A stretch of DNA of 64,000 nt from Candidatus Parcubacteria bacterium (GCA_026395685.1 JAPLYG010000013.1:387-64386); one strand, 5' to 3'; positions 1-63,438 are shown, counted from the stretch's first letter. Notes: generated from the sequence alone by a model not told the origin. Program-made: numbers and translations.

Positions 1-3000
1 CATTGGCAATTTAAACATTCATTACCTGTGCTGCAGGCGCTATTATCGCAATTTTCTCCGGCTTCTACTATGCTATTGCCGCAAACCGATTGTTTCGGCG
101 TAACTGGTGGGATTACTGGAGGTATAACTTCTGAACTGACTAAATTGCTGGTTGAATTTGTTTTTAAACTGGTTATATTTGAACCGCTGACAATTGCCTG
201 ATTGGTAATGGTCTGGCCTTCGCTGCCTGTATTAACTTTGGCTTTAAAGGTAATATTTGCGCTTTCATTTATTCCTAATGCACCCACATTAAACGTTAAG
301 TTATTGCCTGTATTTGCTACTGCTACATTATTTACCTTAGAACTGCCGGATACGTATGTTAAATGGCTGTTTAATACATCTGTTACTATTATTCCTGCAG
401 CAGCGGCTGTGCCGTTATTTGTCAGATCTATGCGGTAGCTTAAAATATCATCCACATCTGCCGAACCGCTTTGCGCATAAGGTGCGCTTTGCGCTGAACT
501 AAAATGATTGAGGCCCAAAAGTCCGCCCATCATTACAAATAGAACTAAAGCTTTCAAAACTCCGGCAGCTAAAATTCCCTGCAAAGAAGCTTTGCTGATG
601 CTATGCATTTTCTTGTGTTTGGCATATGACACCTGGCTATATACTCCGTTATTATTTTGCACTGCAAGAGCTTCATAAACATGCTGCGGTTTTTGAAAAA
701 TCAAACTGTCAATTATGGCCAAAGCCATACTTAAGTTGTAATCTTTACGCAGATGCTTGACTGTGCTGACAATACCGATTATAAAAAATATTCCCAAGAT
801 CAATAACGCAATATTTAAAAGCCAGGATAAGCCGTTTAAGACATATCTTTGATTATTATTTAAATCTATACTGGCAAAGGCTGTATTAAACAAAGTAAAT
901 CCCCAATTCTTCGCCAGATTTACAGCCACGCCCTTAGTAGCTACAATATTTGGCTTAATAGCTGCTGGTGCTGGCTGACCATTTCCTGCTCCTAAATCCG
1001 TTTCTACTCCATCGCCGTTTCTGGCTTTGGCTGCCAGATTATATGGGTCACTGCTGGTTAAAGCTATTTGCACGGCCGGGACTGGCTTGCCAATGACTGC
1101 TATGCCGGCTGCTCCTCCCCAGGCTTCATAGGTTTGCCAGCTTTCCACATCGCTAAAATTACCATCTGACTGCAGATACTTGCCCGTGGTTATTTCCTTG
1201 ATTGCATATTCGGTATTCGCCGGATTTCCGTCATTGGGATCCAGTTTTAGATTTAATATTCCTGAGCTTAAAGGTGCTATTATTACCTGCTTTGGTATAT
1301 TGGCTAGAGTATAGCAGCTGACTAAACCGGTAAATGACTCTTCCGCAGCTATATAGGCGCTGACTTTACTGATATATTCAGTATTTGTAGTTAAGCCAGC
1401 TTCGTTAATCAGCCTGCAGCTAGCAGCTGCTCCGCCAGCATAATTGCATAAATGAGTAGCATCAGTTGCCACTTCTTTGATCAAATAAGCATTTGAAGCT
1501 AAAACGCCATAAAGGCGAAATCCTATTTCATTTGTGGAATTATCATTGAAAGTCCAGTCCAGGCTGGAATTACTTATTGGCTGACAGCTTAAATTTGTCG
1601 CTGGCATAACATTATAGCCAAGGCCGCCTTCCGAAGAAGTATCATCATTTGCAATAGTACCGACTCCCTGACCATGACCAGCTAGAATTGTGGCATTCTC
1701 AGGGCTAGAAAGATTTACATAAAATGTTTCAGTTAATTCAGGATCAGTATCGCCATTAACCTCAACTTTAATCGTTTTGGTGGTTTCTCCGGGATTAAAT
1801 ATCAGCATATCCTGCGGTAACGCAACATAATCATTATCAGCTACTGTTGCCGTTCCGTCGACAACATCATATAAAACCGTAGTTTGCATCCCGGATACAG
1901 GTGAAAGCGTGACAGTAAAATTAAAATTTCGCTTACCCGAATCTCTTTCCAGTAAAGAAACATCATTTATGGACAGCGAAGGCATGGCATCAGGCGGAGG
2001 AGATTCAGTAATATTGACATCTAAAGACCCTATCCCGTTGTAATTTGGATCTGAACTTGTCATTGTGCCCCAAACCTTGCCAATATGCGGTGATGCTTCA
2101 TACATTGCGTCATCTACAGCAGTAATAATAATTTCCTGATCAGTCATCCCGTTTATTGGAGTAAATGTAAGGCTGACAGGCAATACGCTAGTCTGTCCAT
2201 CAGGAGTACTAAAATCAATAATTACGTCAGATGACGGAAGAGAGGTCAATCTAATAAATATATTATCCGAAGACGCGGTTGTTTCATCCACATCTGTCGT
2301 TCCAAATGGAGGTGGTGTCTGAGTGACAATCACGCCCGCCGTATCATTATCAGTTATATTAACAACTACATTTGGAGTGGCAACGCCATTATTCATAAAT
2401 ACAGCGGCGGGACCATTGTAATTCGGATCAGCGCTTGCTGCCGTATGAGTTATTGTTCCTGTATGCGCGCCTTCCACATAAAAATCATCAACGGCAGACA
2501 CTATTATTTCCTGAGCTTCATAATAATCTAGCCGTGAAAATATTACCTGAGCTAAATCTGTTGTCACCTGCCCATCAGCAATAAGAGATACCGTAACGCC
2601 GACATCGACGGACGGCTGTTGTCTTAAATACAAATTATAAGTATCAGTTGCCCCGCCTTCAGTAACATTTGTAGAGCCTTCAGTTTCAGCTATGATTATC
2701 TCAAAATTACTGATTAAATTATTATTAAACTTTACAAAAGCCGTTAACCCGGTCGCATCCCCCCCGCCTGCAAACTCATCCTGGTTAATATCGGCGCCAT
2801 AATTAGTTTCTCTTTCACTTTTTGTCATATCAACCAGATAATTTACATCAACTGGATCCATAAACCTGTCATTATTCAAATCGCCCATTCTTCCCGCGTA
2901 AAGCGGATTACTCATCAAAGTGTTTACATCTACAATATTAACGATAATACTAGGGATAAATATACCGCCATCATATAAAGATAAAGGATCAGCGCAACTA

Positions 3001-4889
3001 GAACTAAAACTAATATTTTCCTGGACAGTACCTTCAATAATCGAGTCATCTGGTGCTGTCACAGTTACGGTTTGCGGGGTAGCCCAATTAGCGCTGGTAA
3101 ATGTCAATGAAGATGAACTCAAAGCAATCTGCGTACTATGGCTGATATTTATAGTTACATTACCCGTAGGCAATGTTTCCAAAACAACACTAAAAGAATC
3201 ATCAGCCGCAATTCCTTCTTTGACTTCAGTCCGTCCCGGCGTAGCGCCCCCAGATTCATCAACAGTCACACCAGCCTGATCATTATCTGCGACTATTACA
3301 TCCATATTAGGAGCTAGTGAACCGTCATAATCCCCATCTCCGACACTCGTTACAGTATGAGTGATAGTACTAGTCAATTGACCTTCTGCAGTTCCGTCAA
3401 TAGGAGCAGTTATTGTTATTATTTGCGGTGTATTCCAATTTAAAGTGGTAAAGGTAATAAAGCCTCCGCTTAAAATTGGATTTAGCAGGCTATCAGTTAA
3501 ATCAATTCCTGTAGCAGAATCATCATAAGTAAAAAAGACTTTCACATCAGCTGTCGGCGCCGAAGCTAATACCACGCTATAAGAATCTGCTAATCCACCT
3601 TCACGCACAAAGGTATTACCGTTTGTAGGCGTGATTATGACGCCGCTGCGATAAACAGAAACGCTATTTCCGCTGTAAGATTTGAAGTTGAGCAGGTAAA
3701 TATTCTCATACTTATTTATACTGACAAAATCTAATTTGTTATCATTATCAAAGTCAGCTGCCGCTAAATTAATCGGACCCGGAAGAGTATTTAAAGCAGG
3801 CGCTGCAGTAAATGTAAAATTATTATTGCCATGAAATATTTTTATGGCATTATCTGCATAGCTGCTGACTGCCAAATCAACGCCAGCTATATTATCAAAA
3901 TTTCCGGATATAACCCTGGTGCTTTTCTCACCTATCGGATACGATGTCAACCGCTCAGTAAAAGTAAAAGAATTCAAGCCATTATTTTCATAAATTCTAA
4001 GTCGGCTTGCGGTAGCAGTAAAACTCACATCAATCCCCGCCAAGTCAATATCAGTATCGCCATCAAAATCACCGGCCGCAATAAAATCAATATTGCCAGA
4101 TATACCAACACCCGGAGCAAAAGTTCCATCGCCATTATTTTCTAATACTGATAAAGCTGCGGTATCGGCCGGGGCACTGCTCGAGACAACCAAATCATTA
4201 TCTCCATCACCGTCAAAATCAGCGCTAACAATCTGAAGCGGACTCCTGTCAACAGCATAATCCACTGCGGCGGCAAAAGTTCCATCGCCATTATTTAATA
4301 AAACTGATATGGAATCTGAACCGTTATACGGCTTTGTATTATTATAACTATTGGCTACCACCAAATCAAAAGATGCATTTGCATCCAATCTTGTGGCTAT
4401 AATGCCGGTCAGTCCTCTAAGCCCTAACCCTGTCGTATAGCTATCTCCTGGTGTAAATGTAAATACTCCACTGCCATCATTTCGCAAGATGACTATAGTA
4501 TCCGTAGAATAATTAGAGACTGCCAAATCAATATCAGCATCGACATCAAAATCAGCAGCGGTAATTGAATTTGTTCCTTCGCCGACAGCATCATAATTTA
4601 CTGCAGGCAAGAAGGCACCATGACCGTCATTTAATAAAATAGAAACTTGAGCTACTCTGTAATTAACCACAGCCAGATCATTATAGCCGTCACCGTTAAA
4701 ATCAGCTGTTGCTGCCTGGCGCGGATCATCAAGCACCAAATAATTTTCCGGCGCTAAATAGGGATAGGCATTAGAAGTTTTCAAAAAACTCAAACATAAA
4801 AAAAGAATGGCCAAAATAGCCAAACGCCAAGCTGGCCTAAATGTCAGTAATTTTAAGCCGATAATTCTATTTTTAAAATTTGATTTCAT
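1..4889 (-). CDS. Giant cell-surface adhesin-like protein, 3' end runs off the window (at least 1629 codons present). It has FG-GAP/VCBS-like repeats, tandem beta-sandwich domains including Calx-beta-like ones, a DUF11-like region, one TM segment and a C-terminal Cys-rich CGNxxxExGExCD...C.NCQC module.
   Basis: Manual minus-strand translation from the ATG at 4889-4887 (MKSNFKNRIIGLKLLTF...) stays open to position 1. Frame re-checked at about 4200, 2940, 1000 and 1-60. Motifs seen: ADFNGDGYNDLAV, FDGDGDNDLVV, ...TVADNDYVALPQDMLIFNPGETTKTIKVEVNGDTDPELTETFYVNLS. Absent from the ORF track because there is no stop in the window. Confidence 0.7.
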   Translation of the reverse strand, partial: MKSNFKNRIIGLKLLTFRPAWRLAILAILFLCLSFLKTSNAYPYLAPENYLVLDDPRQAATADFNGDGYNDLAVVNYRVAQVSILLNDGHGAFLPAVNYDAVGEGTNSITAADFDVDADIDLAVSNYSTDTIVILRNDGSGVFTFTPGDSYTTGLGLRGLTGIIATRLDANASFDLVVANSYNNTKPYNGSDSISVLLNNGDGTFAAAVDYAVDRSPLQIVSADFDGDGDNDLVVSSSAPADTAALSVLENNGDGTFAPGVGISGNIDFIAAGDFDGDTDIDLAGIDVSFTATASRLRIYENNGLNSFTFTERLTSYPIGEKSTRVISGNFDNIAGVDLAVSSYADNAIKIFHGNNNFTFTAAPALNTLPGPINLAAADFDNDNKLDFVSINKYENIYLLNFKSYSGNSVSVYRSGVIITPTNGNTFVREGGLADSYSVVLASAPTADVKVFFTYDDSATGIDLTDSLLNPILSGGFITFTTLNWNTPQIITITAPIDGTAEGQLTSTITHTVTSVGDGDYDGSLAPNMDVIVADNDQAGVTVDESGGATPGRTEVKEGIAADDSFSVVLETLPTGNVTINISHSTQIALSSSSLTFTSANWATPQTVTVTAPDDSIIEGTVQENISFSSSCADPLSLYDGGIFIPSIIVNIVDVNTLMSNPLYAGRMGDLNNDRFMDPVDVNYLVDMTKSERETNYGADINQDEFAGGGDATGLTAFVKFNNNLISNFEIIIAETEGSTNVTEGGATDTYNLYLRQQPSVDVGVTVSLIADGQVTTDLAQVIFSRLDYYEAQEIIVSAVDDFYVEGAHTGTITHTAASADPNYNGPAAVFMNNGVATPNVVVNITDNDTAGVIVTQTPPPFGTTDVDETTASSDNIFIRLTSLPSSDVIIDFSTPDGQTSVLPVSLTFTPINGMTDQEIIITAVDDAMYEASPHIGKVWGTMTSSDPNYNGIGSLDVNITESPPPDAMPSLSINDVSLLERDSGKRNFNFTVTLSPVSGMQTTVLYDVVDGTATVADNDYVALPQDMLIFNPGETTKTIKVEVNGDTDPELTETFYVNLSSPENATILAGHGQGVGTIANDDTSSEGGLGYNVMPATNLSCQPISNSSLDWTFNDNSTNEIGFRLYGVLASNAYLIKEVATDATHLCNYAGGAAASCRLINEAGLTTNTEYISKVSAYIAAEESFTGLVSCYTLANIPKQVIIAPLSSGILNLKLDPNDGNPANTEYAIKEITTGKYLQSDGNFSDVESWQTYEAWGGAAGIAVIGKPVPAVQIALTSSDPYNLAAKARNGDGVETDLGAGNGQPAPAAIKPNIVATKGVAVNLAKNWGFTLFNTAFASIDLNNNQRYVLNGLSWLLNIALLILGIFFIIGIVSTVKHLRKDYNLSMALAIIDSLIFQKPQHVYEALAVQNNNGVYSQVSYAKHKKMHSISKASLQGILAAGVLKALVLFVMMGGLLGLNHFSSAQSAPYAQSGSADVDDILSYRIDLTNNGTAAAAGIIVTDVLNSHLTYVSGSSKVNNVAVANTGNNLTFNVGALGINESANITFKAKVNTGSEGQTITNQAIVSGSNITSLKTNSTSNLVSSEVIPPVIPPVTPKQSVCGNSIVEAGENCDNSACSTGNECLNCQ

Positions 4890-4999
4890 ATTACAACAAA
4901 TAAAATAGCAAATTTAAAAAAATGCCTCGAGTTTTGCTTTTATCTCCTGATTTAATTATATCAAATTTTATCTTACTTTAGCAGTCAAACTGGGGATAA

Positions 5000-10927: not shown

Positions 10928-12007
10928 TTAAATAATATCCCTCATCGCCAGACCCAAAGCTACTGCAAAACGGGGTCCGACTTCAGTCAAAACCGGACGC
11001 AATTCTTGTGGATAAATCACTCTTGCCCAAGGATCGCCGATATATGCGCGTAAATTCAGGACATTAGTTAAATATTTATCCAGATAATTACCGAGCAATG
11101 ATCCGCCTCCGGTTAAAATCACTTTGTCAAGTATTTTCTGCTGTCCCATCTGGTCATAATAAGTCTTCAGCAAATACTTGATTTCTGAAACTAAAGGCGC
11201 TAAAGCATCTTCCACCAGCTGAGGATAATTACTGAGATTCTCTTGCTGCATTAAAATTGCCATATCTAACTTATAATTTTCTGCTTCAGCAATTGTAATA
11301 TTTAAGGTATCGGCAATTTTCTTGGTAATTACGCCGCCGCCATAATTAATGGTTCTGTTTAAAAGCGGCATGGCATAATTGACAATTGATAAAGTCGTTA
11401 AATTCTCGCCGATATCTACTAATAAAATCAAAGATTTATCTGTACCGACCAAAGAACGCACTAAAGCAAAAGTTTCAATATCTAAATTTGTAAGCTGAAA
11501 ATTTGACTGCTTGAAAATATCCACATAAGTTTTAACAACTTCTAAAATAGAGGCGGTGACTAAATATCTGGCCACTGGAATTTTTGGGCCAGAATCAGGA
11601 TTTTCAATTTCTTCATCAACGATCAAATTGAAATCAAAAATTACTTCCTCTATCGGCCGGGGCATAATCTTTTTCAGCTCTTCTATTAATAAGGGCTTGA
11701 TCTTGGCCTTATTTTCCAAATCACGGCGCTGTAAGTTTGACAATTTAATCACTGTTGAAAAAACAGAAGAAATAGGCAGGGCAGCCGACGCAAAATTTGT
11801 CGTTACCTTTGCACGGTCAGCGACTTCTTTTAATAAAGTGCTTGTTAAATTTCTATTATTGATAAAGTCGCCTCTTAAAACATCACTGCGGGATTCCGTA
11901 TAACCATAAGTCACTAATTTTGGCTTGCCGGCTTCTACGGTCAACTCAACAATTTTGATGGAATCAGGCGACAAATCAACACCTAAATAACTATAGGGTT
12001 TTGCCAT
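10928..12007 (-). CDS. pilM: Type IV pilus assembly protein PilM (actin-like ATPase fold)
   Basis: N-terminus LGVDLSPDSIKIVEL and overall PilM-like length and motifs. Confidence 0.7.
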   Translation of the reverse strand: MAKPYSYLGVDLSPDSIKIVELTVEAGKPKLVTYGYTESRSDVLRGDFINNRNLTSTLLKEVADRAKVTTNFASAALPISSVFSTVIKLSNLQRRDLENKAKIKPLLIEELKKIMPRPIEEVIFDFNLIVDEEIENPDSGPKIPVARYLVTASILEVVKTYVDIFKQSNFQLTNLDIETFALVRSLVGTDKSLILLVDIGENLTTLSIVNYAMPLLNRTINYGGGVITKKIADTLNITIAEAENYKLDMAILMQQENLSNYPQLVEDALAPLVSEIKYLLKTYYDQMGQQKILDKVILTGGGSLLGNYLDKYLTNVLNLRAYIGDPWARVIYPQELRPVLTEVGPRFAVALGLAMRDII

Positions 12008-12084
12008 TTTTAAAATTTTTTAATTTTTAAATCATCCTTCTTAGTTGTGAATATATTATACCACAAAAAAAGCCAAAAATATAC

Positions 12085-12492
12085 CTATGTATGGTTATCC
12101 AATTCCTGATTTAATAATTCATCTGCTTCTTTGTTCAATTCCCTGGGAATATGCTTAAATTTTACCGTGCCTAAATTTACCGTTAAATTCCAAACTTTAA
12201 TAAATAATGGCTGGAGGTCTTTATCTTTTACCCGGTATTCCTGCTTCATTTGCTTAACTACAAGTTCAGAATCCAAAAAACAATTTACCTCAGAGGGCTT
12301 AAATTCTTCAGCCAATTGTAAAGCTTTGATTAATGCCCTGTATTCAGCTTGGTTGTTCGTAGTCTCCCCGATATATTCAGCATGGGTTTTCAAAACTTTA
12401 TCATTATCATCTTTAATAACAATACCAATTGCCGCCGGTCCGGGATTGCCGCGGGCTCCGCCGTCAGTAAATATTTTTAATATTTTAGCCAT
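12085..12492 (-). CDS. rnhA: Ribonuclease HI
   Basis: FTDGGARGNPGPAAIGIVI ... EYRALIKALQLA. RNase H type 1 catalytic motifs. Confidence 0.8.
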   Translation of the reverse strand: MAKILKIFTDGGARGNPGPAAIGIVIKDDNDKVLKTHAEYIGETTNNQAEYRALIKALQLAEEFKPSEVNCFLDSELVVKQMKQEYRVKDKDLQPLFIKVWNLTVNLGTVKFKHIPRELNKEADELLNQELDNHT

Positions 12493-12569
12493 AAAAATTT
12501 TTATTAATAGCCTTTAATCATTAGCTATGTTTTATTCCATATTCCAACCAATTATATCATTTATCCTGT

Positions 12570-12596
12570 TGATAGAAAAGCCCACTAGGAGTGGGC
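12570..12596 (-). terminator. Hairpin AAGCCCACT-agg-AGTGGGCTT at the 3' end of the PilZ gene
   Basis: Perfect 9-bp stem immediately after the stop at 12585. Confidence 0.5.
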
Positions 12597-13073
12597 TTGA
12601 GGGATTGAAGGCAGTTCTTTTAAAAACAATTTAAAAACTGCCCAATCAGTACAACTTTCGATATACATCCCGGTTAAATTCCACAAACCTCTTTCTGCGC
12701 CATCTTCATGATGATATTTAACCTCGCAAATCAAGGTAAGTCCTTGTAATTTTTCTCCACAAATTCCCGCGGGAATCTGGAAAAAAATTCCGACTTTCTG
12801 GCCTTTGACCAGGTTCAAACGGCTCATGATGCTAATACCGTGTTCTGAAATATCATGAATACGGCATTGAACCTCATGAGATGAAAGAACATGCGACGAA
12901 ACAGTGCTGGGAACACTCTTTACCAATTCCTCCTTCCGCTGATAAAGCACTCCAGTATGATCTACCAGAATCGGAAATTCTGACGGAACACTTTTCCGTA
13001 CTGACTTTCTATTGTCAACAGCAACGGGCAAATTTTTTTCTTTCTCACTATCCGTCATAACTCCTCCTTCCAC
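12585..13073 (-). CDS. PilZ domain protein
   Basis: RKSVRKSVP (RxxxR) and DISEHGISI (DxSxxG) motifs. Confidence 0.6.
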   Translation of the reverse strand: MEGGVMTDSEKEKNLPVAVDNRKSVRKSVPSEFPILVDHTGVLYQRKEELVKSVPSTVSSHVLSSHEVQCRIHDISEHGISIMSRLNLVKGQKVGIFFQIPAGICGEKLQGLTLICEVKYHHEDGAERGLWNLTGMYIESCTDWAVFKLFLKELPSIPQAHS

Positions 13074-13222
13074 AAAAATTTTCAGAATTCAATAATACTT
13101 CCCAAAGAAAAAATTGCCCTAATCAGGCAATCAACCTCCCTTTCTATGTATAATTTTAGCAAAAATTTTATATTTAACCAAATTTACCTTGTTGATAAAT
13201 AATCAAAGGATACCCCGCCACC

Positions 13223-13251
13223 TTGACAAAATGATATAAATATGCTATTAT
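13223..13251 (+). promoter_or_regulatory. Sigma70-type promoter TTGACA-N17-TATTAT
   Basis: TTGACA 13223-13228, 17-nt spacer, TATTAT 13246-13251. Sits 60 nt upstream of the 13313 ORF. Confidence 0.6.
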
Positions 13252-13312
13252 TATATATCCTGGAAAATGTTCCCATTTAACCAATAACAACCTTTTAACA
13301 AAGGAGCAAAAG

Positions 13313-13651
13313 ATGCACGGCTTTACTGATTCTATCGTCATTATCCAGGCAGCCGGAACCGGCAGCTACACTACCGGAATCGGATTCAACTTCCTGACCA
13401 TTTTCAGCCCCGGGCTGAAAGAACCGGCGCAGATACGGGTGCAGGATCTCAAGCTCTTCGTGAGCAACGAAATTGGCAGGGGCACTTCCTTGCCCTGCTA
13501 CAGCGCCGCACACCAGATGATCGGCTTTTCCTCGGAAGAGTCGCTCGTCTACTACCTGAAGCTCTGGAGAATCGGTCTGGATCTAATCCAACCCGAAACA
13601 AACCAGGCGCCGAAGGTAAACCGGGCCGCGACCGCGATGGTCACCGCCTAA
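13313..13651 (+). CDS. Hypothetical protein, GC-rich cassette gene (about 55% GC)
   Basis: AAAGGAG Shine-Dalgarno 8 nt before the ATG. Composition differs strongly from neighbours. No recognisable domain. Confidence 0.5.
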   Translation: MHGFTDSIVIIQAAGTGSYTTGIGFNFLTIFSPGLKEPAQIRVQDLKLFVSNEIGRGTSLPCYSAAHQMIGFSSEESLVYYLKLWRIGLDLIQPETNQAPKVNRAATAMVTA

Positions 13652-13706
13652 ACGACAACCAACGCCACAACCACAAAAGGGAGCATTAGTATGAACCATT
13701 GAATTT

Positions 13707-13750
13707 TGGGGGCAATCCGCATATAGCGAGAGGCCCCCCTTTTTAATTTG
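13707..13750 (+). terminator. GC hairpin GGGGGC...GCCCCC followed by a T-run
   Basis: ttttgggggcaatccgcatatagcgagaggccccccttttta. Confidence 0.4.
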
Positions 13751-13841
13751 GTAATTTGTTAACTGGTTTTGATATGCGCATATTTATTTGTTTAAAATTA
13801 GCCAAAAAATTATATATATTCGCTTAAATTAATCCAAGATA

Positions 13842-13870
13842 TTGACAAAAATGACGCAATATGCTATAAT
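13842..13870 (+). promoter_or_regulatory. Sigma70 consensus promoter TTGACA-N17-TATAAT
   Basis: Exact consensus hexamers with a 17-nt spacer. About 90 nt upstream of the 13963 ORF. Confidence 0.65.
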
Positions 13871-13962
13871 AATATATTGAAATTGATTATATTAGGAATT
13901 CAATCTTGTAGTTTGTCAACACAAAACAACCTGATTGATTACAGGAAAAAAGGAGATAAGCC

Positions 13963-14292
13963 ATGTGTTTCAACGATTGCTGGGTGGTTGTTTCCGTCCG
14001 CGACGAAGGCGACTACTATGCCTTCGAGTTCATGGGACGGCCGGGTCTGTCAGTCAGAAAAGAAGACTGTCAGATCGTGATCAACACCGAGCTCGGGGAC
14101 AAGATCCTGTTCTATCCCGAGCGCATCCCGGAGATCTGGGCCAACGACATCTGGGCGCTGATGGATGTGTTTGACGGGATCAAAATCCCGGACAAGACCC
14201 ATCCCTGCACCGGCTGCCACGGCACCAAGTGTTCCGTGGTCTGCCGTAACGACCAGCCCCCTCCCTCAGCCGCGGCCGCGTTCGCGTGCTGA
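13963..14292 (+). CDS. Hypothetical Cys-rich protein, GC-rich cassette gene
   Basis: AAAGGAGA Shine-Dalgarno. C-terminal PCTGCHGTKCSVVC cluster. Overlapping ORFs in other frames are likely artefacts of GC-rich DNA. Confidence 0.5.
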   Translation: MCFNDCWVVVSVRDEGDYYAFEFMGRPGLSVRKEDCQIVINTELGDKILFYPERIPEIWANDIWALMDVFDGIKIPDKTHPCTGCHGTKCSVVCRNDQPPPSAAAAFAC

Positions 14293-14302
14293 AAAAAAGA
14301 CC

Positions 14303-14335
14303 CCGCCAAAGGACATTGATCCGGCGGGGCTTTTT
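14303..14335 (+). terminator. Intrinsic terminator CCCCGCC-loop-GGCGGGG followed by CTTTTT
   Basis: gaccccgccaaaggacattgatccggcggggcttttt. Confidence 0.55.
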
Positions 14336-14385
14336 AAAACCACGGATTTTGCTCACTGATAACACTGATGTTTGGCGTCATCGGG

Positions 14386-14419
14386 ATATCAGTGTAATCT
14401 GTGAATAAAATCAGTGGTT
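14386..14419 (+). repeat. Repeat family X, copy A (ATATCAGTGTAATCTGTGAATAAAATCAGTGGTT), built from ATCWGTG heptamers
   Basis: Matches the reverse complement of 16415-16449 and 16868-16889. Preceded by two CACTGAT heptamers at 14355-14368. Confidence 0.6.
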
Positions 14420-14430
14420 CTGTTCTTCCT

Positions 14431-37399: not shown

Positions 37400-37527
37400 A
37401 AAATAATTTTACGCCCCGCATAAACATGCCGGGCATACACTATAAAAGACGTAAAATCAGGATAATTGTTACAAATATCAGTTTTTAGCAGGCAAACGTA
37501 AATGGCGTGAAATAAATAGCCAACCCC

Positions 37528-37556
37528 TTGACAAATTATATATTTTTTGCTAAATT
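37528..37556 (+). promoter_or_regulatory. Promoter TTGACA-N17-TAAATT with a TGC extended -10
   Basis: Upstream of the J-domain gene. Confidence 0.45.
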
Positions 37557-37595
37557 AAGATAACTCTGAATGTACCTTGAAAGGAGAATATAATA

Positions 37596-37886
37596 ATGAA
37601 TGCACCTGCTGACTTGTATGAAATCATGGGTATTACCCCTAACGCATCGCTGGCTGAGATAAAAAAAGCCTACCGTGCATTAGCTTTACAGAACCATCCC
37701 GACCATAATCCGTCAGATGATGCCAAAACAAAGTGGGCTCAGATCCAAAAGGCTTATGAAATACTGGCCGATCCAGTCAAAAAACTGGAATATGATCAGG
37801 GCAAAAAAAGCGCAATTACAACCAAACCAAGGGACTTTTTACGAGACCTTTGGGATATAATGGTTAACCGAGGACTTAAAAGTTAA
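37596..37886 (+). CDS. J-domain (DnaJ N-terminal domain) protein, stand-alone
   Basis: [34 protein letters not shown] ... [16 protein letters not shown] with HPD tripeptide. Shine-Dalgarno GAAAGGAGA. Confidence 0.8.
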
Positions 37887-37911
37887 GCCTCAAAACACAA
37901 GGGAGGACCAC

Positions 37912-38406
37912 ATGATTATCAATTTCCCGAAAGATATGGGTGAAACCGTTCAACTCTGCGCCGACGCGATCGATAGCTACACTGACCCTGAAGATCCCAA
38001 AGCCCTTTCCCGTACTTGCGAAAAATTTTTCCTGGAGCTGAAAGACCAGGCTGATCTTCTACTCGAAGAACAGTCTTACGGTGTCATGACGCTTTTGGGC
38101 AAAATCAGGCTCATTAACAAAACTCAGGCAATCTTACTTTTCGAAAAGGGCTATTTGCCTTCCTGGGAGGACATCACGGTTGCGGCTTCGCGCCAGCAGC
38201 TGGTTAATGACCTCCGGACCAAAAACGACACTGTCGCCAGACAGATCATAATGATTGCCTTTTGTCTGTCCTGCGGTAGCGATATCCGCTGCGCCGGCAA
38301 AACAATCTTACGGACCTCTGGCGTTCCCAGCAACACCGAAACCCCGGTCAAAGAAGTCGGGGAAGAAAACGAAGGAGAAGAAGATGGATCAGAAGAAACC
38401 GACTGA
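37912..38406 (+). CDS. Hypothetical protein with an acidic C-terminus
   Basis: Shine-Dalgarno AAGGGAGGA. GC-rich. C-terminal EVGEENEGEEDGSEETD. Confidence 0.5.
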   Translation: MIINFPKDMGETVQLCADAIDSYTDPEDPKALSRTCEKFFLELKDQADLLLEEQSYGVMTLLGKIRLINKTQAILLFEKGYLPSWEDITVAASRQQLVNDLRTKNDTVARQIIMIAFCLSCGSDIRCAGKTILRTSGVPSNTETPVKEVGEENEGEEDGSEETD

Positions 38407-39301
38407 TCTCGTTACTTTACCTGCCGAAGAAAGAGCGAATGCGCTCAAAGTTATCACTGCCCAGTCAGGCAAACACGGCGAAAACGAGATTGAAAAACTG
38501 GCTGACACCGAAGGCGATCACTCTGCCATTGCGGTTTTGTTACGGCTCAATCCCCTGGAAATCGGCCGCCTGATCAAAACAGGCGATGTCACGGTTCCCA
38601 CCATGACCGCCATTCTGGCCAATCCTCAACAGATTGTCGAGATGCTGGCCATGGATCCGATGGCCTGGGAAAAAGAGCTCAATACGGAAAATCTTTTCGA
38701 ACTGCAGAATGAAGCGCTGGGCGTGATTTCCCAAATTCTGGCCAATACCCTTGATCGGGCCAAACAGCTTGAGATTCTAGAGGCAATCTGCGCCAACAAA
38801 AACGCTTTTTTCTATCTGTGCTTTCCCTTCATCGGGATTAACACGGACCTGGATGAAAACGAAGGCGTCAAAGGAGTCTTCCGAGAATCCAAGATTGCCA
38901 CCGAAGATCGAATTCGGGAAAAAATCCATGCTGAAACCGAACGAGTCAAGGCTGAGCTTGAAGAAAATAAAGATGAGGAGGATGAGGAGGACGACTTTGA
39001 GCCCCCTCCCAGTATCGAGACCATCGTAAGTGACGTCATCGCCAATGAACGCCAGCGAGAGCCAGTAATCGACCTCGCGGAATTCGAAGCGCGTCAAGAT
39101 CTGCTGGAGCTGATCCATGAAATCGCTCCGGAAGTTCTTACCGAAATGATGGAATTAATCTGCGAGACCGAGGATCAGGCCGGTTCCTGGGAAGGCGTCA
39201 TCAGCCAAATCAAGGAATTGCGCACCAGTGCGGAAAAACTTTTGGGACAGGAACAGGATGACGAAGAATATGTCTCCATGTTCGATCCCGAAAAGAAATA
39301 A
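38384..39301 (+). CDS. Hypothetical acidic protein
   Basis: Start refined to MDQKKPTDL after GAAGGAGAAG, overlapping the upstream stop. The EEDEEDDFEPPPS segment is acidic. Confidence 0.5.
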   Translation: MDQKKPTDLVTLPAEERANALKVITAQSGKHGENEIEKLADTEGDHSAIAVLLRLNPLEIGRLIKTGDVTVPTMTAILANPQQIVEMLAMDPMAWEKELNTENLFELQNEALGVISQILANTLDRAKQLEILEAICANKNAFFYLCFPFIGINTDLDENEGVKGVFRESKIATEDRIREKIHAETERVKAELEENKDEEDEEDDFEPPPSIETIVSDVIANERQREPVIDLAEFEARQDLLELIHEIAPEVLTEMMELICETEDQAGSWEGVISQIKELRTSAEKLLGQEQDDEEYVSMFDPEKK

Positions 39302-39320
39302 CAACCACAAGGAGGTTCCA

Positions 39321-41006
39321 ATGGCGGGTACAGCGATTGTTCGCCACGACTCCCGCCTGCTCCTCTTTCAAGCCCTCGGACATACACAGTTTGGGGGCTT
39401 ATTTTTTGACCAGGTCAAAAAAGAGGGCGCAGGCATGTCCTACGAATTTGCTAAAAAGTACTACACTGTCACTTCTGAACCATATCTGACTCGGGCTACT
39501 TACTGCGTTTTGGGCATTTGCAATCTGGGTCTGGTGCTGGCCAGCAAAAATCAGCTGGACATAGCTCTGAGCCTGATACAGAACAAAAAGCTGTTTGACC
39601 TTTTCCAGCTCGGCTGGGAAAAAATCAGCCAGCTGGTTAAGATGAAAAATTACTGCGACCAAAAAGAACTTGGCGACCAGACCTGGAACATTGAAAAAGA
39701 ATTGGCTGAAAGATTCAGCGCCGAACCAGGCAAAAACTGGATTGGTCTGGATGAATATACTAAAGCCAAGGATGAATATGAGAAAAATTATTTTACTGCT
39801 TTACTGCGGCAACACTTCAGACAGCACTTCATTGCCAAAGCCCGTGATCAGTATTCCTATGAACTGGGCGACTCTTACGTGAATAACAGCTTGTTTACCT
39901 CACTTCTGTTCAACGATAGAATGCATGCACCACTCAAACCTGAGGAATTTGCAGACCTGTACAACTGGTTTAAAAATCCTCGGGTATTGAAAATCATGCG
40001 CCTTAAGCTGAAAGACTTCAGTAAAACACTTACACAAAAACAGCGTCCCTTCTTTTGGGCAGAAGTTGAAGACAGCTTAAATTCCGCGGCTTTTGCCAAA
40101 CTGGCACTTTATGCACAGCAAGGCGACGAAGAAAGAAGCCTGAAAATTTTCTACTCCCAGTTCTATGTGGAGGCAAATCCTGATAAGATTTCTCAGGCCC
40201 GCTATGAAAAAGCCAAAGCTGAGTATAAAAGCCCTCTAAAAAACTTTGAGGATCTGCAGCTCGAGCTGGACAGGCTGAAAGAAAACATGCCTGATATTTC
40301 TGACAAACTGGCGATCATTGATGTGGTCTTAGAGCCCAGATTTGTTCCCTTGCTAACCGCTGACGACCTGACAAACATCATGGCTGCGGATAAAATGCTG
40401 TGGCAGACAAAAATCTGCTGGCCCCTTGTCAATGATCGGGTTTTTCACATTCTGCTGAAGGATAAATCCACCCAAAAGTATACCGGCCTCATGTTGGAAG
40501 ACTTTTTGGGCAATCTGCAGACGTTCACGAACAAACACATTAAAAAGCTGATTGCCAAGCTGCAGATGATGAGCAACACTCAGCTTTATAATCTGTGCAA
40601 AGAATCTGCTGATATGCGCGACTTTTTACTCAAGCACATCCGCAGAGAGCCGAACATATATGCTGATTCAATTTCAGCTGCCGACACCAACATCCTTTTT
40701 ATCCCGCCTAATGAATGGCCGCACCTGTGGCAAGTTTTTTCCTTGGAAAGCGCTGAGTTCATGTTCAAAGAATTGCGGCGTTACTACCGGGAACTAAATA
40801 TCCCCGCAGACCAGGCAGAACAAATGTTCTTCGAACGGGTAAAAATTGTTTGCCGCTTTTACCAGCGCGACAAAAAAAACCCGAAGAAAGATTATCCGAC
40901 CTGTGAAGCTCCGTATTACAATGCGGACCTGAAAAAGGCAGTGGCTCATACCCTGTCTCCCAAAAAATTTAAAGCCTTCAGCCAGAAACTGGCTGATCTA
41001 GCCTAA
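39321..41006 (+). CDS. Hypothetical large, mainly alpha-helical protein (562 aa)
   Basis: Start refined to MAGTAIVRHD after CAAGGAGG. No recognisable domain. Confidence 0.5.
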   Translation: MAGTAIVRHDSRLLLFQALGHTQFGGLFFDQVKKEGAGMSYEFAKKYYTVTSEPYLTRATYCVLGICNLGLVLASKNQLDIALSLIQNKKLFDLFQLGWEKISQLVKMKNYCDQKELGDQTWNIEKELAERFSAEPGKNWIGLDEYTKAKDEYEKNYFTALLRQHFRQHFIAKARDQYSYELGDSYVNNSLFTSLLFNDRMHAPLKPEEFADLYNWFKNPRVLKIMRLKLKDFSKTLTQKQRPFFWAEVEDSLNSAAFAKLALYAQQGDEERSLKIFYSQFYVEANPDKISQARYEKAKAEYKSPLKNFEDLQLELDRLKENMPDISDKLAIIDVVLEPRFVPLLTADDLTNIMAADKMLWQTKICWPLVNDRVFHILLKDKSTQKYTGLMLEDFLGNLQTFTNKHIKKLIAKLQMMSNTQLYNLCKESADMRDFLLKHIRREPNIYADSISAADTNILFIPPNEWPHLWQVFSLESAEFMFKELRRYYRELNIPADQAEQMFFERVKIVCRFYQRDKKNPKKDYPTCEAPYYNADLKKAVAHTLSPKKFKAFSQKLADLA

Positions 41007-41011
41007 ACACC

Positions 41012-41042
41012 AACCCTGAACCATCCGGTTCAGGGTTTTTTT
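41012..41042 (+). terminator. Intrinsic terminator AACCCTGAACC-atcc-GGTTCAGGGTTTTTTT
   Basis: Perfect 11-bp stem followed by T7. Ends the GC-rich operon. Confidence 0.8.
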
Positions 41043-41051
41043 ATTAAATCA

Positions 41052-41080
41052 AAAAAGCGCTTTGTACCAGAGCGCCTTTT
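41052..41080 (-). terminator. Hairpin GCGCT-ttgtaccag-AGCGC flanked by A/T runs
   Basis: Lies between convergent genes, likely the terminator for mscL. Confidence 0.45.
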
Positions 41081-41609: not shown

Positions 41610-41909
41610 TTATCTATTCGGATGCTTACGCCTTGAATAAATTACTAATTTATCCACATTTTCTTCAATTAGAGCTTTCTTCTTGCGCCGCGACCAACCC
41701 TTAATCTGTTTTTCACGCTCAATGGTGGAATTTATATCAGTCGAATATTCGCAAAAAACCAATCTTACCGGGCGCCTTTTATAAGTATAACTTTTTTCAT
41801 TTACTTGATTATTATGTTCCCAAATCCGTCTTTCAAGATTATTTGTAACTCCCGTATAATAAGTTTTATCTTTACATTCAACAATATATACCCAATATGT
41901 TTTATACAT
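41610..41909 (-). CDS. GIY-YIG nuclease domain small protein
   Basis: YWVYIVECKDKTYYTGVTNNLERRIWEHN (GIY-YIG core with a conserved R and E). 99 aa. Confidence 0.8.
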   Translation of the reverse strand: MYKTYWVYIVECKDKTYYTGVTNNLERRIWEHNNQVNEKSYTYKRRPVRLVFCEYSTDINSTIEREKQIKGWSRRKKKALIEENVDKLVIYSRRKHPNR

Positions 41910-48816: not shown

Positions 48817-48877
48817 ATGCTATTAGCTGTTCTTTCCCAAAATGCTAGATTTCATTCCAAACAATGAGGAGGATACT

Positions 48878-50233
48878 ATGACGCAGATAAGCTGGCCGAT
48901 TCGTTTACCGAAATTGATCGCTGATTTGCACCTCAAATCCGAGGTGGCGCGCCTGGTGCGTAAGGCTAATTTGGACACTGTCCAGGCAGACAATTTTGCG
49001 GAAAAAATTTTCCAAAAATATCTGCGGGATAAAAATTTCAAGGAAGCCCTGCAAATATTTCTGGATCTGGCCATTTCTATCGATATTGCCAAGAAGCTGA
49101 CTATCGGCCCAAACGGTTCGACCAGAAACAGCAATTTCATCATTCAGATTATTGCCGCTTATTTTGCCAGGCGAATATCATATACTGAGCAGGACCTGAC
49201 ATATTTAAAAGCTTTTTCTGCCCAATTAGAATCCCTGGAAACTGAGGAAAATTGGTTTTTTGCCAAAACCTTAGTTCTCCAGGAATATATGGAAAGAATA
49301 ATCGGGGCCAGACTGTATATTAAGGGTCTCAAGATCCTTAACCCTCAACTGTTTATGGAACTGAGTGCCAAAGCATTGCCTGACTTAGCCCAAGACCTGG
49401 AAGCAACTATGAAAGAGCTGACCATTTTGAAACGATATGGCATTAAAACCAGTTTTTTCCAGGACGGAGTTCTTCACGGAATAAATGAGGTTTGGGTTTT
49501 TACTGATTATCGCGACATTATAGCGGCAACCTCTTTTAAAATTTTGGAGGGAAAACCCCTGGCTCTAGTAAGCCTGGCTACCATAGCAGCGATGAAAAAT
49601 CCCTTGTCCTTGAAGGTCAGGGAGGTTGTTACCAGCGATTCTAAGGTTACCCTGGCCGGCTATGAATTAGAAGGGTTTTTATCCTGGTCAATGGATGAAA
49701 AAGCTGAATTTGACGCTTCCAGCGGACTCGGTTTATTGCCGGTCCGTGAAATATTCAGCCAGGCACAAAAATCCGACATCTACGAGATCTTCCGGCTGAC
49801 CCAGGTAATGCGGCTTTATGACCTGATTGTGCCGCTGACAGTCGTGGAACAAATGCCCAAATTGCCCAGGGTAGAAAGTTCCACCCTTAAGAACATCGTC
49901 AACCGTTTCCGGACAGCAGCCAGGCCGTTAAATCCGGACTTGCTGGTACCGCGCATCAGGACAATGGAAAATCCCAGGCATCTGATTGAGGAGCTGGAAA
50001 AAGAGGTGGAAATTGCGGAGCAGGAAACCAAAAAACGCACGCATTGCCATCATGAAGTAATTGATTTCATCCGCCGTCTGCCTCAAGGGTACAAACCTTC
50101 AGCCCGAGCCAGAGCTTTAGCAAAAGAACATCTGGGAATTGAACTGGCTGACAACGAGACTTATGTCAAAAAGCACGAAAGAGGCAAGGGATCTTCCAAT
50201 GCCGGAGTCCATCAGGCCAAACACCGGGAATAA
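48878..50233 (+). CDS. Hypothetical protein (452 aa), GC-rich cassette gene
   Basis: Start refined to MTQISWPIRL after AATGAGGAGG. No recognisable domain. Confidence 0.5.
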   Translation: MTQISWPIRLPKLIADLHLKSEVARLVRKANLDTVQADNFAEKIFQKYLRDKNFKEALQIFLDLAISIDIAKKLTIGPNGSTRNSNFIIQIIAAYFARRISYTEQDLTYLKAFSAQLESLETEENWFFAKTLVLQEYMERIIGARLYIKGLKILNPQLFMELSAKALPDLAQDLEATMKELTILKRYGIKTSFFQDGVLHGINEVWVFTDYRDIIAATSFKILEGKPLALVSLATIAAMKNPLSLKVREVVTSDSKVTLAGYELEGFLSWSMDEKAEFDASSGLGLLPVREIFSQAQKSDIYEIFRLTQVMRLYDLIVPLTVVEQMPKLPRVESSTLKNIVNRFRTAARPLNPDLLVPRIRTMENPRHLIEELEKEVEIAEQETKKRTHCHHEVIDFIRRLPQGYKPSARARALAKEHLGIELADNETYVKKHERGKGSSNAGVHQAKHRE

Positions 50234-59884: not shown

Positions 59885-60292
59885 TCAGCACTTAACTTGT
59901 AAGTCAGCTGGCTGGCGACGATTGCCCATCCAAAAGCCGATGGCCATGAAAAAGACCTGGGGCGCAGCCATGACGATCATCAGATCATACCATTGGTACG
60001 GCATCTGCTGGCAGAACCTGGCCGTCAATACTGCTGTCGACGCGGCGATGATAACCATCACACACCCGAATCCCAAATCCCAAGCCGCGGGCAGGCTAAG
60101 GCCGAGCAGGAAAGCGGCGACCGTGAACATGCCCAAAGCCGTTCCCACATCCAGCCAGGGATGCTGAGCCAATAGTCCTCCTTTGGTGAAGGCAATGACC
60201 TGAAACGAAAAGAGCCACAAACAAATACCAAGTAACCGCGAATTTTTCAACATTCTCCCTCCTCCTTGCCCAGAACCTATGCGCAAACGCAT
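59885..60292 (-). CDS. GC-rich small membrane protein
   Basis: Four predicted TM helices. About 55% GC. Confidence 0.5.
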   Translation of the reverse strand: MRLRIGSGQGGGRMLKNSRLLGICLWLFSFQVIAFTKGGLLAQHPWLDVGTALGMFTVAAFLLGLSLPAAWDLGFGCVMVIIAASTAVLTARFCQQMPYQWYDLMIVMAAPQVFFMAIGFWMGNRRQPADLQVKC

Positions 60293-62913: not shown

Positions 62914-63438
62914 CTATTTTTTAATCTCGGCAATAAGGTCTATCACATAGTCGAAATCCGCGCCAATAAGCACATAACGCAGGTACGCACCGACATCAAT
63001 CATAAGTGCCGGATCAACTCCGTCAACATCGTTGAAAATTCCAAATACACATCCCAGTTTTCTCAAAGTAGAATCCGGGGGGAAACCTTTACTTGGCAAA
63101 TCAGCCTCAATCGCCTGCTTCATCTGCAAAGGTGTTTTGTCTCCGACCTTTAAAAAAACAGCCACCCCTAATTCCGATGACATAAACTGCATTAGCTGAT
63201 TAAGAGATTCTTCCGTGTAGTCCATCAGCATAAAATTAAGTTTGCCTATGACACGGAACAAAATACAGGAGATCATAGTTTCCTTATCAACCAGGTGATA
63301 CGCGTCCCATTGACCGATACTGACATAGTTATTAGTGTGAAATCCCGCCGAATGAAGCTTTTCACACATTTCATCAATAACCTGCTGGTATGTTTTACCT
63401 TTGGTCATAATGATAACGGGCGGTACTTGTTGACTCAT
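62914..63438 (-). CDS. Hypothetical protein
   Basis: ORF only. Confidence 0.4.
   Translation of the reverse strand: MSQQVPPVIIMTKGKTYQQVIDEMCEKLHSAGFHTNNYVSIGQWDAYHLVDKETMISCILFRVIGKLNFMLMDYTEESLNQLMQFMSSELGVAVFLKVGDKTPLQMKQAIEADLPSKGFPPDSTLRKLGCVFGIFNDVDGVDPALMIDVGAYLRYVLIGADFDYVIDLIAEIKK

Follow-up and report, generated by a model that had tools for sequence, protein, structure and literature searches.

A probable atcJABC operon in a Candidatus Parcubacteria bacterium: divergent homologs of all four Atc proteins, expression signals conserved in its clade, and a candidate RNA element in atcC

The window analyzed here is a stretch of 64,000 nucleotides from a Candidatus Parcubacteria bacterium (GCA_026395685.1, JAPLYG010000013.1:387-64386), and the subject of this report is a block of four genes on its plus strand. 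The encoded proteins are homologous to AtcJ, AtcA, AtcB, and AtcC, the components of the Atc (adaptation to cold) system of Shewanella, their characteristic motifs are conserved, and the genes lie in the same order between a promoter and a terminator. The block is most likely a divergent but complete atcJABC operon on the chromosome of this member of the Candidate Phyla Radiation (CPR, or Patescibacteria), one that is an old resident of its clade and that works by the mechanism described for Shewanella. The protein-protein contacts, the RNA polymerase (RNAP) target, and a cold phenotype would be as in Shewanella, from which they are carried over by analogy. The Atc system itself is already known; what is new here is a divergent member in Parcubacteria, together with a candidate RNA element and an expression signature that is conserved among the related loci.

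The four genes, all on the plus strand, are atcJ (37596-37886, 96 residues), atcA (37912-38406, 164 residues), atcB (38384-39301, 305 residues), and atcC (39321-41006, 561 residues). The intergenic distances are 25 nt between atcJ and atcA, -23 nt (an overlap) between atcA and atcB, and 19 nt between atcB and atcC. The J-A-B-C order on one strand, bracketed by a single promoter and a single terminator, predicts that they form one operon. An earlier reading made from the DNA alone (the sequence-only reading) had already recognized a GC-richer block of four plus-strand genes, for which the limits 37596-41006 are confirmed here; it had rightly described the fourth product as a long helical protein but had given it 562 residues rather than 561.

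Homology of the four proteins to the Atc family

NCBIfam models matched all four proteins in the canonical Atc order. For AtcA and AtcC the Atc model was the only hit, and for AtcB there was one other, with an E value of 0.076. The bit scores for AtcJ, AtcA, AtcB, and AtcC were 51.7, 32.1, 59.6, and 52.7 as compared with equivalog cut-offs of 150, 200, 440, and 370, respectively. Because these scores are well under the cut-offs, the proteins of the window are distant homologs and not equivalogs; they are only 23–35% identical to the canonical Atc proteins. Homology of the whole set to the chromosomal atcJABC system nonetheless contradicts the earlier statement that the block does not resemble a host pathway. 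AtcA, AtcB, and AtcC had no useful match in PHROGs, PADLOC, or Pfam, the last in a version without the newer Atc families. A homology search with AtcC matched just four proteins among 5.8 billion. Two long relatives of AtcC lie in the same four-gene arrangement, in which the precomputed Pfam assignments are DnaJ, AtcA, AtcB_N/AtcB_C, and, weakly, DUF6178. Exact-sequence look-ups of AtcC and of the protein P0001 returned no record, and a sequence search of the PDB with the AtcB and AtcC profiles gave no match.

AtcJ consists of a J domain (PF00226, E 1.1e-22, residues 6-67), in which the His-Pro-Asp (HPD) tripeptide occupies residues 34-36, followed by a C-terminal extension; the earlier identification of a stand-alone J-domain protein with an HPD motif is thus borne out. 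The extension is included in the match to NCBIfam NF050028 (cold adaptation protein AtcJ, printed as 'ActJ'), which has an E value of 9e-14 and covers model positions 5-91 of 93. A PX7W motif is present as P78...W86, and in a BLASTP alignment with AtcJ of Aeromonas caviae (4e-19) P78 and W86 align with the PX7W motif of that protein. His34, Pro35, Asp36, Pro78, and Trp86 are invariant across seven loci. The protein therefore resembles Shewanella AtcJ, which also has about 95 residues with both HPD and PX7W motifs. Its matches in PHROGs are to generic J-domain families only. Specialized J-domain co-chaperones direct DnaK/Hsp70 to specific clients or locations. DjlA, CbpA/CbpM, and HscB, to which there are weak NCBIfam J-domain matches, share with AtcJ an HPD-containing J domain that targets DnaK/Hsp70 in this way, but they have other client-binding domains and other operon partners, and none is encoded together with homologs of AtcA, AtcB, and AtcC.

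The sole match of AtcA, to NCBIfam NF047888, has an E value of 9.3e-8. The protein is 32% identical (1e-29) to one labeled PF27445 AtcA from the related locus L001, and a profile of its clade aligned with Aeromonas AtcA with an hhalign probability of 97.8% and an E value of 9.6e-13. It comprises a globular N-terminal part and, like Shewanella AtcA, an acidic tail at the C-terminus, where Asp and Glu account for 10 of the final 18 residues (56%). One of the two acidic runs picked out in the sequence-only reading, EENEGEEDGSEETD, is the end of this protein, and the other, EEDEEDDFEPPPS, is in a loop of AtcB.

AtcB matched NCBIfam NF047889 with an E value of 3e-16, and PF27450 (AtcB_C) is precomputed for exactly this protein. 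It aligned over nearly its full length (BLASTP 4e-15) with P0025, an AtcB of equivalog level (444.9 bits as compared with the cut-off of 440). In this pairwise alignment, and equally in the family-wide alignment, Asp45 and Asp68 correspond to Asp37 and Asp60, with the spacing of 23 residues that is also found in Shewanella AtcB. These are the most conserved positions of the family among the 106 members with a residue aligned there, Asp45 being present in 105 and Asp68 in 96. The architecture comprises a helical-repeat N-domain that includes both aspartates, an insertion of about 80 residues (approximately 152-232) made up of a helix and the acidic loop, and a C-terminal domain; the insertion is a difference from canonical AtcB. 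A word-indexed homology search with AtcB alone recovered nothing beyond the query and a single relative with 87% identity. A region similar to the AtcB N-domain is also found at residues 2-160 of P0104, a protein of 816 residues (E 2.2e-4), which may be a fusion protein or be distantly related to that domain.

In AtcC, the similarity is confined to the N-terminal region. The match to NCBIfam NF047890 (4.4e-14) covers residues 29-174, and the N-terminal ~180 residues aligned with the 298-residue AtcC of the canonical-type locus L011 (BLASTP 9e-13, hhalign 97.9%). For the C-terminal ~380 residues, neither similarity to canonical AtcC nor any other match was found, and the region is a clade-specific extension that makes this protein, at 561 residues, much longer than the 298-residue AtcC of Shewanella. 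Long AtcC proteins are reported in other lineages, AtcC length being variable among them, and an acidic disordered tail is described for AtcA (PMC6715715; 10.64898/2026.09.07.749886). The AlphaFold2 model of AtcC is all-α but poor, with a predicted local distance difference test score (pLDDT) of 57 and a predicted template modeling score (pTM) of 0.32. DUF6178 was considered as the identity of the C-terminal region and rejected because the weak matches to it span only residues ~63-130 of the relatives.

Expression signals, distribution, and age of the operon

The block differs from its surroundings in composition. When the window is divided into 64 segments of 1 kb, the three with the highest GC content lie at 38-41 kb (0.493, 0.471, and 0.448; the next highest is 0.444), and GC is 0.45–0.49 in the operon block as compared with a window mean of ~0.38–0.39. 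The contrast noted in the sequence-only reading is therefore real, although its figure of about 36% for the flanks is slightly low against the mean of ~0.39. The GC content at third codon positions (GC3) is 0.558, 0.556, and 0.530 for atcA, atcB, and atcC, whereas the 50 other genes have a mean of 0.383 (S.D. 0.066), giving z scores of 2.2–2.6. The shift in these three genes thus sits at silent sites; atcJ, with a GC3 of 0.381, is native-like.

The four genes are also distinguished by their Shine-Dalgarno (SD) sites, which match AGGAGGT over 5, 5, 5, and 7 nt in atcJ, atcA, atcB, and atcC, respectively, at suitable spacing from the start codon. Among the 50 other genes of the window, the start codons of which were set by the longest open reading frame (ORF), 45 have no match of even 4 nt, and matches of 4, 5, and 6 nt are found in three, one, and one. 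The earlier observation of strong SD sites on the four genes and not on those flanking them is upheld by this census. Nearly all native genes, both in the window and in the flanks of the related loci L001, L003, L012, and L013, are without an SD and have A/T-rich upstream sequence such as AAATTT; the SD-bearing exceptions in the window are the atc genes and 62914-63438. The scarcity of SD sites among native genes suggests that initiation in these Parcubacteria is mostly SD-independent.

A promoter of the σ70 type is predicted on the plus strand at 37528-37556, with TTGACA separated by a 17-nt spacer from TAAATT with a TG extension (extended -10 element TGCTAAATT); it scored 10 of 12 in a consensus scan. 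It is followed at 37571-37595, on the same strand, by a leader, TACCTTGAAAGGAG, that contains the atcJ SD (AGGAG) and is near-identical in five of six Parcubacteria-type loci. In all six of these loci the -35 sequence CTTGAC and the extended -10 sequence TGCTAAR are invariant, whereas the adjoining intergenic DNA is not conserved. At the other end of the operon, the predicted intrinsic terminator (41012-41042, plus strand; 41012-41037 in a hairpin scan) has an 11-bp stem with six GC pairs and a 4-nt loop and is followed by a T-run, TTTTTATT. The TTGACA-N17 promoter and the terminator that the sequence-only reading had assigned to the block are thus both recovered. The convergent mscL gene would be terminated by a second hairpin, at 41057-41075, which on the minus strand reads GCGCTCTGGTACAAAGCGC with a T-run after it; the terminators of mscL and of the atc operon would then stand back to back.

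Relatives of the operon are few. An exhaustive profile search among 1.84 billion proteins gave 102 AtcB-type representatives at the 50% identity level, seven of which form a tight clade set apart from the others by a gap. Pattern scanning of 185,579 species genomes yielded only two loci, one in a metagenome-assembled genome of Candidatus Falkowbacteria (L003) and one in that of a Parcubacteria bacterium from Lac Pavin sediment (L001), and metagenome contigs supplied further relatives (L006, L012, and L013/L014). Identity of the Atc proteins to those of the window is 29–59% across the other loci, and in the close relative L006 it is 87–89% (AtcB). Five other independent assemblies carry this operon with its GC shift, which counts against a chimeric assembly, and in L001, L003, L012, and L013 the operon exceeds its flanks by 4.5–8 points of GC. 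Two canonical-type loci are without such a rise (0.344 in the operon as compared with 0.391 in L007, and 0.464 as compared with 0.472 in L011). In the Parcubacteria-type loci the atc genes bear strong SD sites but their neighbors hardly any, a feature that both of the canonical loci inspected lack. An orientation opposite to the neighboring genes recurs in all four loci with flanking sequence. Some neighbors are themselves shared: downstream, the HI0933-like gene recurs in L012 (67% identity), GIY-YIG in L013, and copies of GIY-YIG in L003; upstream, PGA_cap recurs in L013 (47%). Neighbors and Atc proteins give the same ranking of relatedness, L012 being nearer to the window than L013.

These comparisons bear on the proposal, made in the sequence-only reading, that the block is a recently acquired island of phage, plasmid, or other mobile origin whose J-domain protein hijacks the host Hsp70 for takeover or anti-defense. 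The GC3 of 0.53–0.56 against 0.38, strong SD sites in a host that has almost none, a strand opposite to that of the neighbors, a promoter and terminator of its own, and the occurrence of J-domain proteins in several PHROG families are what such an island might be expected to show. A search of 2.9 million viral contigs and 50,697 phage records, however, recovered no relatives, and the single match in a plasmid collection, L015 (NZ_AP026896.1), is a 4.9-Mb Aeromonas caviae replicon filed as 'plasmid pKAM479_3' that is evidently a mislabeled chromosome and carries canonical atcJABC. PADLOC gave no match for any of the four proteins. Around the operon there are no flanking att-like repeats, tRNA, or integrase, and no relevant Rfam family. 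All four genes are homologous to a chromosomal regulatory system, and the GC, SD, and promoter signature recurs in five loci, three of which share neighbors, with proteins that are mostly 31–59% identical, a pattern that recent transfer cannot explain. At this divergence silent sites should be saturated, and the raised GC3 and strong SD sites therefore cannot be remnants of a recent transfer to this genome. We consider recent acquisition very improbable, and the operon, judged from these sequence comparisons, has long resided in a small clade.

A transfer into the ancestor of the clade is a different matter. The operon may have come long ago from a GC-richer donor that used SD sites, its donor traits having been kept since the logic of its expression depends on them. 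The AtcB family is very small and unevenly distributed, as the 102 representatives, the gap before the clade of seven, and the two loci in 185,579 species genomes indicate, and the GC and SD features are present in the Parcubacteria-type loci and absent from the two canonical ones. However, silent sites should equilibrate over a divergence that reaches 31% protein identity, so that retention would require selection in any case; no donor lineage was identified; and inheritance in other phyla is mainly vertical according to a preprint (10.64898/2026.09.07.749886). An ancient transfer is a reasonable possibility that falls somewhat short of probable. It concerns origin only and is compatible with the Atc interpretation of function.

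The genes around the operon are ordinary chromosomal ones: an ABC exporter, PAP2/LssY, PGA_cap, and DUF3160 upstream and MscL, GIY-YIG, HAD, and the HI0933-like flavoprotein downstream. No ribosomal or similar genes are present in the window. Downstream of the Falkowbacteria operon, L003 has a tandem module (11814-12974) in which three GIY-YIG-like fragments of 60 residues are interleaved with two ORFs of 43 residues; the fragments are 39% identical to 41610-41909 of the window. The description of the atc block as the only multi-gene plus-strand unit is essentially right. The plus-strand ORFs at 1-4.9 kb are spurious because the stretch is covered by a minus-strand ORF of at least 1637 residues (1-4911) that runs past the left edge of the window and probably encodes a giant surface protein. 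Two doubtful plus-strand ORFs, 13235-13648 and 13960-14289, could make a second small unit; they lie in a GC-richer region (13100-14430) with no clear gene and with overlapping ORFs of 65–138 residues on both strands. Two genes without a Pfam match, 59885-60292 on the minus strand and 48842-50233 on the plus strand, have GC3 values of 0.625 and 0.50 and are outliers like atcABC, to which they are unrelated.

A predicted RNA structure early in atcC

Over its first ~130 nt, atcC is 83–93% identical in DNA sequence among the loci, whereas the AtcC proteins overall are 30–47% identical. The predicted fold of this stretch has an energy of -47.9 kcal/mol (z = -4.2 relative to shuffled sequences). 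The element, on the plus strand at 39355-39434, comprises a closing stem and two hairpins, of which the first has 12 bp (39370-39400) and precedes a U-run and the second is a U/A hairpin (39402-39423). It lies about 50–115 nt into atcC and occupies the matching place in L001, L003, L006, L012, and L013.

Because the stretch is coding, a null that preserves the protein was used, in which codons were resampled from the usage of each operon to give 300 recodings per locus. In five of five Parcubacteria-type loci the native RNA was more stable than 299 or 300 of the 300 recodings (z from -3.1 to -5.8), whereas two canonical operons subjected to the same procedure had no excess stability (z of +2.0 and -0.7). 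In a scan along the whole operon in four Parcubacteria-type loci, the first segment of atcC was the sole position that was extreme in all four, and none of 113 segments from native flanking genes, taken as a control, reached that level. Taken over its whole length, the atc mRNA has more structure than the flanks (mean z of -0.81 as compared with -0.23, p = 0.007). RNAalifold gave a three-helix consensus for the element with essentially no covariation among what are only about four independent lineages. The U-run is kept despite differences in the residues that it encodes (LFF, SFL, and FSL).

Sequestration of the atcC SD, as in an RNA thermometer, was suggested by a short construct, but the pairing of the SD with CUCCU was lost when the downstream partner was included. 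The predicted structure of the 5' stretch did not change between 4 and 37 °C. For these two reasons neither a thermometer nor SD occlusion is claimed. The element is a conserved early structure, predicted in the atcC mRNA, that may set the dose of AtcC.

A broader conjecture can be offered tentatively, and we hold it to be less likely than otherwise: that the Parcubacteria-type atc operons are a distinct subfamily with an invariant promoter and leader, SD-dependent initiation, and an over-structured GC-rich mRNA, in which the ratio of AtcC, as recruiter of DnaK, to AtcB, as inhibitor of RNAP, is set, possibly conditionally, by the stem-loop and U-run of atcC working as an internal attenuator or a site of processing. 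If that were true, there would be a layer of control at the RNA level that is not described for the Atc system, and CPR bacteria with reduced genomes would be keeping a regulatory module that links a chaperone to transcription.

Proposed mechanism and significance

The operon of Shewanella oneidensis (SO_1850, SO_1849, SO_1848, and SO_1846, with homologs in Aeromonas, Moritella, Janthinobacterium, and others) has the same gene order on one strand with tight spacing, and as in the window its AtcC includes the homologous N-terminal region. In that system AtcJ binds DnaK through the HPD motif and AtcC through a C-terminal peptide of 21 residues, by means of the PX7W motif in which the Trp is essential; AtcC also binds AtcB, and AtcB binds RNAP by Asp37 and Asp60, probably on RpoC (PMC6715715; 10.64898/2026.09.07.749886).

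By analogy, AtcJ of the window would bind DnaK via its J domain and dock on AtcC with its C-terminal PX7W peptide, AtcC would form a bridge to AtcB, and AtcB would bind RNAP through Asp45 and Asp68. Recruitment of DnaK by AtcJ-AtcC may then limit or remodel the AtcB-RNAP complex, so that chaperone activity would be coupled to transcription, probably as a means of adapting to cold or to a similar stress. In this clade the system would be expressed from its own σ70-type promoter, by SD-led translation in an SD-poor genome, with raised GC3 and with the RNA structure early in atcC. The suggestion in the sequence-only reading that this is a self-contained operon whose J-domain protein recruits the host Hsp70 is supported, by the same analogy with DnaK in Shewanella; the phage or plasmid setting proposed for it is not, there being no viral, phage, true plasmid, or PADLOC match.

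Several points weigh against assigning the Shewanella mechanism to this operon. Since the NCBIfam scores are below the cut-offs, orthology of function is not guaranteed. The AtcJ-binding site of Shewanella AtcC is proposed to be in its C-terminal region (10.64898/2026.09.07.749886), which is the part without similarity here. The role in growth in the cold is known only from S. oneidensis, where expression is barely temperature-dependent (PMC6715715). Neither dnaK nor rpoC is in the window, and the mechanism does not account for the high GC3 or for the strong SD sites.

The sequence-only reading had also raised a toxin-chaperone arrangement. In toxin-antitoxin-chaperone (TAC) modules, a SecB-like chaperone accompanies a classical toxin-antitoxin pair, and the toxic protein is held in check with the help of the chaperone. 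Atc would resemble these modules, and RNAP-binding growth regulators, in that a potentially toxic protein is restrained with chaperone help. AtcB might on this account be a growth-arresting inhibitor of RNAP, with AtcJ, AtcC, and DnaK as the antidote, and the module might serve dormancy or abortive responses and not the cold. The part of the suggestion that stands is that over-produced AtcB is toxic by blocking RNAP in Shewanella and in E. coli, and that AtcJ, AtcC, and DnaK relieve this toxicity (10.64898/2026.09.07.749886); the RNAP-binding aspartates are kept in AtcB of the window, and the conserved RNA element could limit synthesis of AtcC relative to AtcB. However, the operon encodes no SecB-like domain, and neither Pfam nor PADLOC gave a match to a toxin-antitoxin or defense family. 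The chromosomal neighborhood is conserved and is without defense genes. In Shewanella the contact of AtcB with RNAP is required for growth in the cold and is not used for killing (10.64898/2026.09.07.749886). A toxin-antidote function is therefore improbable, and an Atc system coupling DnaK to transcription remains the preferred interpretation.

With this assignment, what looked like an orphan J-domain protein with three unknowns becomes a member of a characterized system. The block also carries a caution for genome scans: one that is odd in composition and has its own promoter and terminator need not be a recent mobile acquisition. The clade-wide signature, comprising GC3, SD sites, promoter, and the atcC RNA element, provides a natural comparison for the control of Atc stoichiometry and for SD-led genes in SD-poor genomes. 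The Atc system, so far reported mainly in Beta- and Gammaproteobacteria, is extended to the Patescibacteria/CPR, a group of bacteria with very small genomes and few regulators that is without mention in two published accounts of the system (PMC6715715; 10.64898/2026.09.07.749886).

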